DNA of 64,000 bases, from contig OX597819.1 of assembly GCA_951406725.2 (NCBI GenBank), positions 22,692,001 through 22,756,000 of the forward strand, read 5' to 3'. Shown one piece after another: positions 24,169 to 42,264 of the stretch. The position numbers and the translations under genes were made by a program. The notes beneath the pieces were generated by a model. It ran no database searches, was not told the DNA's origin, and was given only the letters and a program-made list of their open reading frames with translations. Each line of letters starts with the position of its first letter. Position 1 is the stretch's first letter. This DNA comes from Octopus vulgaris (Eukaryota).

Positions 24169-24300
24169 TTTGCAGAGATCATTCAGAACATTGCATGCAA
24201 AATGGTCAACGATGGCCAAGTGTCTACAAGAATATATGTGTAACACACTATTGTGAAACTAATCGATTACGAACAACACTAAGCACGCGTCATGATTCAA
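24169..24300 (+). CDS. Third coding exon, copy A: (F)CRDHSEHCMQNGQRWPSVYKNICVTHYCETNRLRTTLSTRHDS
   Basis: attttcag| acceptor, |gtatgt donor, 132 nt, phase 1-1, open; paralog at 37433. Confidence 0.85.
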
Positions 24301-25079
24301 GTATGTATTTATTTTTAATTTGTCTAAATTTATAATCACCATCGCCCCACAAACCGAAGCTACAGATGCGCAAACACACATTCACATTGCCTACTATTTC
24401 ACCCGTTAATTTACAAAAACGTCTCTCTCTCTCTTTCTCTCTCTCTCTCTCTTACGCACGCACGTTTCTGTTGCATCAACGCATTTAGATAGAGAGAATA
24501 TCTTTAGCGTCGCATATATTTAGTGCCAAATACATCTAGTTGCTGAAGGATAATCCGATACCAGACTTGGATGAAGGTGAGATTTATCAGCAATACTGAG
24601 CTCCATGTCGCAGATCACGTGCAAAAGAACAGAGTCTGGTTGATGAAGGTGTTACCGTATTCAAAGATTGACCAACTCAGAACCCTGACTTAAATATCAT
24701 CGAGAAAATGTGGACAGAACAAAAGGGAAGAGTTCGTCAGAAAAATCCATGCAATCTAGAAGAAATGTGGGAGCTCAGGCACAGAGAATGGCGCCTCATA
24801 CCTGTGAAGATGGTGAAGGATTTGTACACAACTCTGCGCAGACGCAAGCCATTACTTACACGGCAGTACAGGGCATGCCGGGAAATATTAACAATGTAAA
24901 CTTCTTGTTTATATTCGTATATATATATAGTTATATATATTTTCATTGAAGATATATATATATATATATATATATACTGCATATTAGTAGAAATATATAC
25001 AATAGTATAAAGTGGCTGAAGACGTTTTCACGGTACTGTGATAGATGGGTAAAATGGAATATACGAGAAACTTTATTGT

Positions 25080-25183
25080 TCACAACAATCGTTTCGACTT
25101 ATCCTGCATTGATCTCTCATGAATGGAAAACTGTACAACCGGTTGTAGTGCATTCCTTGCTTCAGATACGTCTCGTCAGATGA
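25080..25183 (-). ncRNA. Type I hammerhead ribozyme motif (duplicate at 26559-26662)
   Basis: Minus strand: TCAT-CTGACGA-gac...gtc-GAAA-cgattg-TT-GTGA, then AATAAAG; downstream sequence homologous to the 56958 element. Confidence 0.7.
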
Positions 25184-26074
25184 TGTTATAAGGTATAACT
25201 CATTAAATAAACTGTTTCGCTCGATTTTAATGCAGCATGTTGTCAGTGACCGTAGGCTCAAGCCATTCGGCAGGAATTACGTGGAACAGATTTTGTTGCA
25301 ATTTTACAGAGGAAGACAGGGAGTAATAAAGACAAATAATAAGAAAAATAAAACACAATAAAGTAAAACATTGTGTGCGTCAGAACCCAGATATAATTAT
25401 TTCCGTACCCAAACTTGCTGTCCTGCGTACACAGACACACACACGTGTGTGTGTGTGTGTTTGTGTCGCCACAACAGTGGTTCGGAAACTTGTCGGGTAG
25501 CGTGAATTATTTCAACTACATATTGCCGATCTGGAGGCACAATGGCCCAGTGGTTAGGACAGCGGACTCGCGGTCGGCAGATCGCAGTTTCGATTCCCGG
25601 ATCGGGCGTTGTGCGTGTTTATTGAGCGAAAACACCTAAAGCTCCACGAGGCTCCGGCAGGGGTGCTGGCGACCCCTGTTGTACTCTTTCGCCCCAACTT
25701 TCTCTCACTCTTTCTTCCTGTTTCGTGAGTAACGCTGCGATGGAGTGGCATCTCGTCCAGCTGGAGGGAACACATAAGACATAGAAACCGGGAAACCGGG
25801 CCCATGAGCCTGGCTAGGCTGGAAAATAATCACCATCGCCCCACAAACCGAAGCTACAGATGCGCAAACACACATTCACATTGCCTACTATTTCACCCGT
25901 TAATTTACAAAAACGTCTCTCTCTCTCTTTCTCTCTCTCTCTCTCTTACGCACGCACGTTTCTGTTGCATCAACGCATTTAGATAGAGAGAATATCTTTA
26001 GCGTCGCATATATTTAGTGCCAAATACATCTAGTTGCTGAAGGATAATCCGATACCAGACTTGGATGAAGGTGA

Positions 26075-26518
26075 GATTTATCAGCAATACTGAGCTCCAT
26101 GTCGCAGATCACGTGCAAAAGAACAGAGTCTGGTTGATGAAGGTGTTACCGTATTCAAAGATTGACCAACTCAGAACCCTGACTTAAATATCATCGAGAA
26201 AATGTGGACAGAACAAAAGGGAAGAGTTCGTCAGAAAAATCCATGCAATCTAGAAGAAATGTGGGAGCTCAGGCACAGAGAATGGCGCCTCATACCTGTG
26301 AAGATGGTGAAGGATTTGTACACAACTCTTCCCAGGCGCATCGAAGCCATTATTGAAGCTATGGGAAGTCACACGAAATATTAACAATGTAAACTAACTT
26401 CTTGAAATGAACATTAGTTACTAAATTTTCATTGAAGATATTTTTCTAGTTTAAAACACTGCAATTAGTAGAAATTTACAATAGTATAAAGTGGCTGAAG
26501 ACGTTTTCACGGTACTGT
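26075..26518 (+). mobile_element. Tc1 (DD34E) transposase 3' remnant with right terminus (partial duplicate at 24580-25040)
   Basis: NPDLNIIEKMW...LYTTLPRRIEAIIEAMGSHTKY*; ends ..TTTTCACGGTACTG. Confidence 0.8.
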
Positions 26519-26558
26519 GATAGATGGGTAAAATGGAATATACGAGAAACTTTATTGT

Positions 26559-26662
26559 TCACAACAATCGTTTCGACTTATCCTGCATTGATCTCTCATG
26601 AATGGAAAACTGTACAACCGGTTGTAGTGCATTCCTTGCTTCAGATACGTCTCGTCAGATGA
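26559..26662 (-). ncRNA. Type I hammerhead ribozyme motif (copy of 25080-25183)
   Basis: Identical motif inside the tandem duplication. Confidence 0.7.
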
Positions 26663-39470: not shown

Positions 39471-39474
39471 AATT

Positions 39475-39911
39475 TAAAGTATACTAGCCATCTCAATATG
39501 GCTAACCACTAAGGGTGGGTGTTATTGTAGCTTTTAACCCCAGGAGATCATCGTCTCCAGCTGGCTTTAGGCACACTTTCCGTGCCCTTATGGTATTTGC
39601 AAAGGGAGGTCATCCCTCTCTCGTAAACCTAAATGATACGCACGGACTGCAGTTTCGAGGTATTTGTCTCTTGTCAACGTACGGTAATCACCGGTTTTCG
39701 ATGAAGAAAGACCTGTTTGCAAATATCTATTTAATGTTGTCCGTGCGTATCACTTAGGTTTATGAGAGAGGGATGACCTCCCTTTGCAAATACCATAAGG
39801 GTACAGAAAGTGTGCCTAAAGCCAGCTGGAGACGATGATCTCCTGGGGCTAAAAGCTACAGTAACACCCACTCTTAGTGGTTAGCCATATTGAGATGGCT
39901 AGTATACTTTA
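39475..39911. mobile_element. Fold-back element with ~173-bp inverted arms (39475-39647 / 39739-39911) and an HHR at the arm/spacer junction
   Basis: TAAAGTATACTAGCCATCTC.. / ..GAGATGGCTAGTATACTTTA; arms differ mostly by transitions. Confidence 0.85.
39639..39683 (-). ncRNA. Compact type I hammerhead ribozyme, U3-A8 core variant
   Basis: Minus strand: CGTACG-TTGACAA-GAG acaaatac CTC-GAAA-CTGCAG-TC-CGTGCG; all three stems form and stem III is a perfect palindrome. Confidence 0.8.
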
Positions 39912-41430
39912 CGTTGTCGAGCGGTTACTGTTTACATCTCGTTCAGAGATAGGGGAGGGCGCAAGAAGCAGTTGTATTAGTTTAACGCTCGAAAAGAATG
40001 GAAAAGTCTTTGACGTTTCGAGCCTACGTTCTGCGACAAAAAGGGATGAGAGATAAAAATGGAGAATGAAAAAACGGAGAGACATTCCATCGTCTACGAC
40101 TACCTGTTCTGCAGTTGATCTCATCAACAGAACGGACCGCTTGTGAAATTAACATGCAAAATACTGAGCACTCCATGGGCACGCGTACCCATAACATAGT
40201 CGTAAGAGAGATACGACGTGACACACAGAATGTGGCAAGGCTGGCCCTTTGGATTACAGCTACAACTCATTTTGTGTGTTTGCATCTATCTTCAAAAAGT
40301 ACCGTTGCCAAAACAGTTGGCCGTGTCAAATATTTAGCGTTCACAAAGCTGCGCTCAATCATGTAACTCTCTCTCCTCAGAAACAGGTGTCAACTACCGA
40401 GGTAACCATTTGAACATAATTCGATATATCATACGTCTTCCATCATTTACTGTAATGTTTTGTGACAAGAGTCCAGTTGTTCCGTAAGTTCTCTGTTACA
40501 GTGAATTATTTCAACTACACCTTGACGATTCGTCTTAACAGTCGCAGTTCACAGACAACATTTGCGTGGTTTGTTTTCAATGCTGGTGTCTCTTCTTTAA
40601 ACGACTTCATCCTATTCCCTTTTGGTTAGAAACCAGTTCTCTTTGGATTGAGAAATTCGAAAAGTAAAGCCAGTGAAGCAATTGCAGATATATGTGGGAT
40701 GTGGGGTATGTGTGTGCGTGCGTGTGTGTGTACAAACGCGTGAGTATTTGTCTTTATATTGTGTATGACACATAGAAATCTATTTCAATTTAGAACTGCT
40801 GTATATAACAGATATATGTATCTGTATATATACATAGATACATATATACGCGCACACAGACACACACACACGCACAAATATCTATGTGTATATATATATA
40901 TATATATATATATATATATATATACATACATACAGAGGAAGAGGAAGGGAGGGTGAGAGAGAGCTCCCATATATCTTATTAAAAGTTACACCTGTTAAAC
41001 CACCCAAATTTATTAAGACATCCTTTTATTTCCATTTCCATATTCATACCTACTCCATTCACATATTTTCACAGTTATATGCAAATAATTTACTGATATT
41101 TTAAAGTATAGAGAATTATGTAATTATGTTTTGCGCCTGTGTATGTTGTATGCAGTCATGCGTGTATCGCACAACAGCTTTAAACGGGATGAAATATAAA
41201 CACGATGTATCAGTCATATAGAATGCCATGAAATACCCTATTTTCGCATCCCTGTTACTTTATATCCGCAACGATCAGCACGCATTTCCAAGTATATAAT
41301 ATGATGAAACAAAAGTAATATATATATATATATATATATATATATATATATATATATATATATATATATATATACTATGTGCATATTTACCATTAAACAG
41401 CAACGCCGCCGTCATTGTATATAGTATCTA

Positions 41431-41998
41431 TTGGGTTGTCCGGAAAGTTCGTGCCGATTTATAGCAGCTTCCTTTCGACTTATTTTAGAACATGGTTGAG
41501 TCCAGGAAATAGGATTTGACTACACCTCCATTTAGAGCACAGTTTAAGCTATCTTTTCGTGGAAGAAGGTTTATGTTCCTTTAACCTGTCTTAATTCTGT
41601 AACCATTTAAAACGGAAGATAAGAAAGTTCATTTTCGACACTTGATGCTTTGGGAACCAGATAAAAATTGCTGCAGCTCGGCTAGGATGTGTTAACCACC
41701 CACCCTCCATATTCACTCGGTATTGCTCCTTCGGATTTCCACTTATTCAGGTCTCTGCAGAATAGTCTTAATGGTAAAAATTTCAATTCTTTGGATGACG
41801 TAAAAAGATACCTTGATGAATTCTTTGCCATGAAACCACCTCAATTCTGGGAAGAGGGTATTTTCAAGTTAGAGGAAAGATGGAGACGCATTGTGCAACA
41901 AAATGGTTCATATTTGGTTGATTAAAAATGTAATGGCAAGTATTTATTAACCTTTTTCTTTCCTTTAAAAATCGGCACGAATTTTCCGGACAACCCAA
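41431..41998 (+). mobile_element. Internally deleted mariner with both TIRs and TA TSD
   Basis: TA|TTGGGTTGTCCGGAAAGTTCGTGCCGATTT ... AAATCGGCACGAATTTTCCGGACAACCCAA|TA; HPPYSLGIAPSDFHLF..GIFKLEERW..NGSY. Confidence 0.92.
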
Positions 41999-42196
41999 TA
42001 TTTCACTGCCCCAGAGAAATAATCACCTCAAATTTCTATGTTACCATATTTACACGCAGAGAATTTACACAAATTTCAAGCTATTCCTTTAATCATTATA
42101 TACTGATAAAATTAGGTGGGGTCTTGAAACGTTATAGCCAATATGTTTGTTTTCCATTATGGCATTCGTTAAAAACGGAATTATTTTATTTTATAG

Positions 42197-42264
42197 TTTG
42201 CACAGTGGATCACATACTGCTGGACATACTGAAGTTTTACTATCCGGCATTGAACTATTGTTAA
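42197..42264 (+). CDS. Terminal coding exon, copy B: (V)CTVDHILLDILKFYYPALNYC*
   Basis: ttattttattttatag| acceptor, phase 1, TAA at 42262-42264, AATAAA at 42303-42308. Confidence 0.8.

Follow-up and report, generated by a model that had tools for sequence, protein, structure and literature searches.

A gene of four exons (a signal-peptide exon, exon 2, exon 3A and exon 4A) was found in a 64,000-nucleotide stretch of the Octopus vulgaris genome (assembly GCA_951406725.2, contig OX597819.1, positions 22,692,001 to 22,756,000; hereafter the window), together with a 5.4-kb duplicate of exons 3 and 4 only (copy B; the original segment is copy A). On balance, we favour the explanation that the last two exons were duplicated in tandem and that the shared exons 1 and 2 are spliced to one pair (A) or the other (B), yielding two isoforms. 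The gene belongs to a family of clustered genes, and positive selection probably acts at the level of this family. The original prediction for this locus was that the A and B exons differ almost only at amino-acid-changing sites around a fixed cysteine scaffold; for this pair the headline was overstated, since positive selection is not demonstrated by A and B on their own, although pursuing it revealed a genuine signal at family level.

The gene and its duplicated terminal exons

The gene model was confirmed by the O. bimaculoides RefSeq protein XP_052825023.1 (133 residues), which has the same make-up of exons 1, 2, 3 and 4. In the genome, exon 1 had one match and exon 2 one close match, and exons 3 and 4 had two each. 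No second exon 1 or exon 2 for copy B was detected by tblastn, hidden Markov model, blastn or genome search, and a scan for a signal-peptide exon between exons 4A and 3B returned only microsatellite-derived or low-complexity frames. These results identify copy B as a duplicate of the 3' part alone and not as a second complete gene; its candidacy as a complete paralog was rejected because it has no exon 1 or 2 of its own. For the same reason, any expression of B would require splicing from the exon 2 that it shares with A. Both exon-3 acceptors were in frame with the exon-2 donor, and the locus presented shared 5' exons followed by two 3' blocks, each in frame and with intact splice sites and a candidate poly(A) signal, as in an alternative terminal exon pair. 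The original prediction had overlooked the missing exons 1 and 2 of B and the greater distance of A from the O. bimaculoides orthologue.

The product would be a likely secreted protein of about 133 residues with 12 cysteines, and the two isoforms would have the first module in common and differ in the second module and the C-terminal helix. The end would be chosen by splicing and by the poly(A) site, such that reaching B would need the skipping of exons 3A-4A and read-through of the poly(A) site of A. Should both pairs be in use, a partial duplication would have provided a single gene with two binding variants. Tandem exon duplication can give mutually exclusive or alternative last exons, and the octopus locus resembles such systems in its same-phase duplicated exons located 3' of shared exons and in the AATAAA motif after each terminal exon. 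It differs from them in that the duplicate is a block of two exons, including the terminal exon.

Both pairs were compared with the spliced O. bimaculoides transcript. The minimum nucleotide distance for exon 3 was 9 for B and 15 for A, that for exon 4 (derived from two annotated reading frames) was 9/68 for B and 16/68 for A, and 13 codons of an intron segment that is translated in one O. bimaculoides isoform presented 3 differences for B and 7 for A. At non-coding positions, B differed from O. bimaculoides at approximately 6 of 65 detectable sites (about 9%), against 0.17 between A and B (P=0.054). As B is nearer than A to a transcript that is spliced, A and B are likely to be alternative terminal exon pairs. 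These distances suggest that the A/B duplication took place before the two species separated, and that B-type exons are those present in the O. bimaculoides transcript; B is likely the conserved end and A the more derived end.

The chance that a copy would stay intact under neutral decay on one branch, at the non-coding rate, was also estimated. The probability of keeping six cysteines and acquiring no stop codon was 0.12-0.16, that of no indel in 200 bases was 0.078 and that of keeping six splice bases was 0.58, with a joint probability of 0.0055-0.0074; the indel rate in this estimate was taken from intron alignments and may exceed the exon rate. Copy B was present in two DNA-like sequencing runs with different species labels (X1 and X2), with one exon-2 contig per run, although X2 is shallow (depth about 4x, about 2.3% divergent) and contigs prove presence and not absence. 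Exon 3B of X1 carried two amino-acid changes and two synonymous changes, and no stop codon.

Around copy B, about 2% of positions in run X1 differed from the window (8/433 in 37347-37779; 12/555 in 41975-42529), as against 3/456 around exon 2 (15545-16000), and copy B may carry old haplotypes. The three exon-2 differences of X2 (15669, 15703 and 15740), all read from a single shallow contig, were amino-acid-changing.

Several observations weigh against two alternative ends with B as the conserved one. The asymmetry between A and B was not significant, either as lineage-specific changes (13 versus 7, p=0.26) or in a branch model (p=0.22), and the three O. bimaculoides isoforms returned share one exon-3 sequence. 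Twelve of the 26 residues of exon 1 differed from O. bimaculoides, and the signal peptide is thus not especially conserved. No spliced reads or transcripts of the A or the B isoform were seen. Read cover was absent from exons 3B/4B in runs X3 and X12 and from exon 2 in runs X7 and X15, four of 22 presumed RNA runs, which is no evidence either way.

The apparent constraint on both pairs could also be explained without alternative splicing, if a whole-gene duplicate later lost one set of exons 1 and 2, with one terminal pair now in use and the other a recent orphan that has not yet decayed. Whole-gene tandem duplication is the rule in the family, and the homology 5' of exons 3A and 3B breaks off roughly 130 bases short of the exon, where microsatellites and a short interspersed element (SINE) lie, which fits the end of a deletion or of a duplication. 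However, genome searches revealed no remnant of a further exon 1 or exon 2, the resemblance of the region upstream of 3B to intron 1 reflects a common dispersed repeat, and the loss would have to predate the split of X1 and X2, as each holds B with one exon-2 contig (X2 at its low depth). This scenario is judged unlikely, and splicing to alternative terminal pairs is preferred to it.

The match of 36946-37217 to intron 1, considered as a trace of whole-gene duplication, was rejected, since the sequence belongs to a dispersed repeat of which at least 40 copies match better. Both 14760-15461 and 36946-37217 are members of an abundant dispersed repeat, often arranged as inverted arms. Intron 3 of copy A contains a 1.5-kb tandem duplication (24332-25826 and 25826-27305, 96% identical), in which a Tc1/mariner-type fragment and a SINE were tentatively recognised by eye. 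The features of the locus are listed in Table 1.

Table 1. Features of the gene and of its duplicated segment, in window coordinates.
Feature	Position	Strand	Description
Exon 1, coding part	12636..12714	+	ATG, hydrophobic signal-peptide-like stretch, phase-1 donor; from translation; matches the XP_052825023.1 N-terminus; one genome match
Exon 2	15621..15743	+	6 Cys, first beta module; both boundaries in phase 1; not duplicated at the locus; runs X1 and X2 with a single exon-2 contig apiece
Duplicated segment, copy A (from the end of intron 2 through exon 3, intron 3 and exon 4 into the 3' flank)	24042..29420	+	Self-BLAST
Exon 3A	24169..24300	+	Second beta module, 4 Cys; donor CAA/gtatgt
Exon 4A, coding part	28893..28960	+	2 Cys, predicted helix (from the orthologue's model), TAA stop
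AATAAA 3' of exon 4A	29081..29086	+	Candidate poly(A) signal
Copy B of the duplicated segment	37317..42732	+	Without its own exon 1 or exon 2; found in runs X1 and X2
Exon 3B	37433..37564	+	Length and phase equal to 3A; donor TTG/gtaagt
Intron-3 segment equivalent to a 21-codon cassette in O. bimaculoides isoform X1	40501..40563	+	Unbroken in B; interrupted in A by a SINE and a deletion
Exon 4B, coding part	42197..42264	+	2 Cys, TAA stop
AATAAA 3' of exon 4B	42303..42308	+	Candidate poly(A) signal

Probable selection in the gene family

Genome searches and 400 kb of additional stretches revealed 17 copies of exon 3 on the contig designated C6, corresponding to at least 16 genes plus copy B; this family size is a lower bound. 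The genes are clustered near 22.6-22.8, 114.9-115.0, 123.3 and 123.6-123.8 Mb, and in the seven-gene cluster at 123.6-123.8 Mb exons 2, 3 and 4 occurred in a ratio of 7:7:7.

Five pairs of paralogs were examined, of which two (g623/g671 and g722/g744, named by position on C6) are young. The members of g623/g671 differed at 25 of 104 residues and at only 2 synonymous-only codons, with a non-coding divergence of 146/5196 (2.8%). For g722/g744, the values were 26 of 104 residues, 2 synonymous-only codons and 138/3979 (3.5%). The proportion of non-synonymous differences (pN) was 3.8-4.2 times the non-coding divergence, and P was still 1e-6 or less for each pair when one event was counted per changed codon, with local heterogeneity ignored. 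Five of the six exons of the young pairs exceeded 97.5% of the non-coding windows of the same length (shares of 0.0001-0.025), the sixth being exon 2 of g623/g671 (0.18); these windows overlap, and a combined P would not be exact. Exon 3 of g623/g671 was the most divergent of 105 windows. This young pair is an inverted whole-gene duplicate (C6:123619000-123677200) and displayed the clearest exon-restricted peak of divergence.

Site models were fitted to nine sequences of 104 codons, excluding genes with length differences, with our own implementation and not codeml. Positive selection was favoured in the comparisons M1a/M2a (p=0.009), M7/M8 (p=0.002) and M8a/M8 (p=0.001), and with p=0.02 when A and B were left out. 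Between 13 and 16% of sites were placed at a ratio of non-synonymous to synonymous rates (dN/dS, omega) of 2.6-3.3, and all 12 cysteine columns fell in the conserved class. The idea of a variable surface on a fixed cysteine frame was borne out for the family, by its conserved cysteines, fast sites and young pairs, and not for the A/B pair alone.

A number of results weigh against selection in the family. The site-model signal disappeared when the rate of doublet mutation was left free (p about 0.5); with the doublet share fixed at up to 2.9%, p was 0.014-0.046, and at 5.7% it was 0.13. On dN/dS alone, neither young pair exceeded 1 significantly (p=0.13-0.28), and their pooled omega of 2.0 also fell short of significance (p=0.067); the two older pairs had omega values of 0.76-0.82 and 0.37-0.40. 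In the older pairs, synonymous divergence also exceeded the non-coding value, which means that estimates of neutral divergence from intron alignments can be too low. In g722/g744, divergence of the intron around exon 2 was itself raised, at 5.6-8.5%.

The excess of exon over intron divergence might accordingly be due to doublet mutation, to gene conversion that homogenises introns or to biased intron alignment, combined with relaxed constraint. Besides the loss of the M1a/M2a signal and the non-significant single pairs, divergence was patchy along the duplicated segments, and multinucleotide mutations are described as a known source of false positives (10.1101/165969). Against this, the free model required approximately 12.6% doublets, while adjacent mismatches in non-coding DNA exceeded chance by only 0.3% and 2.8%; counting one event per changed codon left both young pairs significant, with local heterogeneity again ignored; and neutral conversion should not spare exons, whereas exon 3 of g623/g671 ranked first among the windows. 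Such an artefact is considered distinctly unlikely, and positive selection on the family is the reading retained.

Selection may have come in bursts, with new duplicates diverging fast at first and later settling under constraint. At least 16 clustered genes, and young duplicates that changed a quarter of their residues against about 3% of their introns, point to a binding partner under arms-race pressure, for which a disulfide-held two-module protein would likely present a variable binding surface. The setting of this partner is a matter of inference: host defence or self-protection is tentatively put first, reproduction is a weaker candidate, and venom and any other setting are each weaker again. 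Few fast-evolving families of secreted effectors have been described in cephalopods, and the genes reported here are direct targets for work on tissue expression and ligands.

Database matches were all from Octopus and were unnamed or automatically labelled (5 of 517, 7 of 202 and 9 of 2376 candidates, and 13 of the 14 matches in a further search). The family is so far known in Octopus only, although other cephalopods are thinly represented in the databases. A match to a fish hemicentin, an immunoglobulin-repeat protein, was dismissed as spurious. Two labels assigned automatically in UniRef, 'UPAR/Ly6' and 'Pleiotrophin/Midkine', received no support from the Pfam scan or the fold searches, only the first of these proteins being in the scanned set. 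No match to any named family was obtained in Pfam scans of six exon products and 15 family proteins or in sequence searches of the PDB. No description of the family was found in the literature covered, which did not extend to subscription journals, and 12 gene and protein identifiers gave no match there. The supplements of PMC10138644, PMC7693380 and PMC12607849 contained no match to the family; a check for salivary-gland or saliva products in one PMC7693380 supplement, bounded by the database of that study, gave no accession or motif match. The family and its two-exon terminal swap appear to be undescribed, while the general kind (a fast-evolving family on a cysteine framework, with tandem exon duplication) is known.

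A divergent subfamily has ten cysteines in a spacing of its own; the terminal cysteine and the fifth cysteine of exon 2 (codon 12) are both missing from it. Because these two are absent together, the comparison suggests that the codon-12 cysteine pairs with the terminal cysteine, which would tie the helix to the first module. The last exons of a convergent neighbour (minus strand, 57766-57927 and 60370-60456) matched O. sinensis LOC118763783. This neighbour is a member of the divergent ten-cysteine subfamily, and its other exons lie just beyond the window.

Divergence between pairs A and B

The codon counts of the original prediction were exact: 14 of the 43 whole codons of exon 3 changed the amino acid between A and B and 3 differed only synonymously, and the corresponding counts for exon 4 were 11 of 21 and 0. 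The conserved frame that it described (the 6 cysteines, the Trp-Pro motif, the lengths of the exons, the AG/GT splice sites and the TAA stop codon) was also confirmed, as were the indels in the flanking introns (24 gap openings in 942 aligned non-coding bases). The raw counts do not bear out the inference drawn from them: non-synonymous sites make up about three quarters of the total, and some of the changed codons also include synonymous steps. In neutral simulations with 26-30 differing codons, approximately 5.3 synonymous-only codons were expected, and three or fewer occurred with P=0.19-0.23, which places the pattern of almost exclusively amino-acid-changing differences within chance.

Positive selection between A and B was not proven by the Nei-Gojobori (NG86), maximum-likelihood, intron or window tests. 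With NG86, omega ranged from 1.25 at kappa 1 to 1.50 at kappa 2, with a Fisher p of 0.21. Maximum likelihood gave 0.94-1.10 (p>=0.86 against 1), which counts against selection here; for 3A+4A versus 3B+4B, omega was thus about 1 and dN did not significantly exceed dS. Non-coding divergence between the copies was 178/1035 (0.172), compared with a pN of 0.23-0.24. The P value for this comparison depended on how multi-hit codons were counted: it was 0.04-0.06 at first, 0.09-0.12 when the most-synonymous path was taken and 0.52-0.59 when each codon was given one event. Of the non-coding windows of the same length, 42% were at least as divergent as exon 3 and 16% as exon 4, such that neither exon lay beyond the spread of non-coding divergence.

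The 42 differences between A and B were clustered in 28 of the 64 codons (33.6 expected, P=0.004). Eleven codons carried several differences; the non-coding rate predicts 4-5 such codons (P=0.002-0.010), whereas at the exon rate P was 0.15. This clustering into few codons and the intactness of both pairs are what exceeds chance for A and B. That selection drives their differences is plausible but falls somewhat short of probable.

It is improbable that the B-type exons are the sole functional end and that pair A is relaxed, mostly skipped and near-neutral (or the reverse), with the differences reflecting relaxed constraint: the omega of about 1, the greater loss of near-invariant family residues in A (G6, G17 and F41 of exon 3; F13 of exon 4) than in B (G12 and Y27 of exon 3) and an unbounded omega on the A branch against 0.35 on the B branch (though p=0.22) would fit it, but A retains its six cysteines, both splice junctions, frame, stop codon and AATAAA, an outcome with a probability of about 0.006 under one-branch neutral decay, and the A/B differences occupy fewer codons than expected by chance.

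Predicted fold, known systems and other features of the window

The structural model of the orthologue (predicted local distance difference test score of 85) comprises two beta modules, each encoded by its own exon, followed by a helix at the C-terminus, and the fold is predicted to be that of two fibronectin-type-I-like (FnI-like) modules plus a helix. The top eight rows of a Foldseek search were FnI pairs (best E 9e-3), and the top hit of VIA-align was also an FnI pair (3ejh_A; Z 5.8, root-mean-square deviation 5.3, 83 aligned residues), each below the threshold of the tool. Another family member aligned to Fn1_2 clusters in the Atlas structure search with template-modelling scores of 0.53-0.57, again below the threshold. 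The second VIA-align hit was chicken MSMB3, on the first module only (Z 4.7, root-mean-square deviation 2.5, 45 residues). These scores are weak even at their best (Foldseek E 9e-3, Z 5.8), which speaks against the FnI-like assignment. All Atlas feature matches were below 0.9, the PSP94 score of 0.76 serving as a lead only. The fn1, Fn1_2, VWC and SVWC models had no sequence match in the Pfam scans, nor did PSP94 match any of the six exon products or 15 family proteins.

FnI pairs, with Fn1_2 (MIG-18-like) and VWC N-terminal subdomains, are among the closest known systems. FnI, a module of one double- and one triple-stranded beta-sheet, leads three structure searches, each time below the threshold, and in the octopus gene there is one module per phase-1 exon. 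The octopus protein differs from them in having no sequence match and in being small and stand-alone. The inner cysteine pair is C-x-C in FnI and C-x4-C in the octopus family.

Conotoxins are a family of hypervariable peptides on a cysteine framework, and the CRP-I peptides of mussels are reportedly another (PMC10138031). The octopus family shares with both a fixed cysteine frame, variable loops and tandem duplication, and in three pairs of paralogs exon 1 was better conserved than the exons of the mature protein. It differs in its mature protein of about 105 residues, in the lack of sequence similarity and in an omega of about 3 at the fast sites.

The nearest working analogy is provided by the snake small serum proteins (SSPs) of the beta-microseminoprotein (PSP94/MSMB) family, which are described as small, secreted, cysteine-rich two-domain proteins encoded by four exons in tandem arrays, with replacement substitution accelerated after duplication, and which bind venom proteins (PMC7150969). 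The octopus family shares these traits of size, likely secretion, cysteine content, domain and exon number, tandem arrangement and speed after duplication. Membership by sequence and cysteine count fails, with 10 cysteines in the SSPs and 12, otherwise spaced, in the octopus proteins. The octopus second module is FnI-like and is followed by a helix, and the available part of the SSP account describes no duplicated terminal exon pair.

Taken as a whole, the picture of an octopus-specific secreted family of recognition proteins built from tandem FnI-like modules and repeatedly subject to positive selection in an immune, reproductive or venom setting, in which one gene swaps its whole second module and helix through mutually exclusive terminal pairs older than the split from O. 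bimaculoides, is rather unlikely to hold in every part, and is offered tentatively.

Elsewhere in the window, a 575-nt tandem duplication (588-1162 and 1150-1723) was 98% identical between its copies. A perfect inverted repeat of 462 nt (47285-47746 and 47923-48384) was 100% complementary, with a spacer of 176 nt, and was accompanied by a near-identical direct copy of 162 nt. This repeat is either a very recent fold-back duplication or an assembly artefact.

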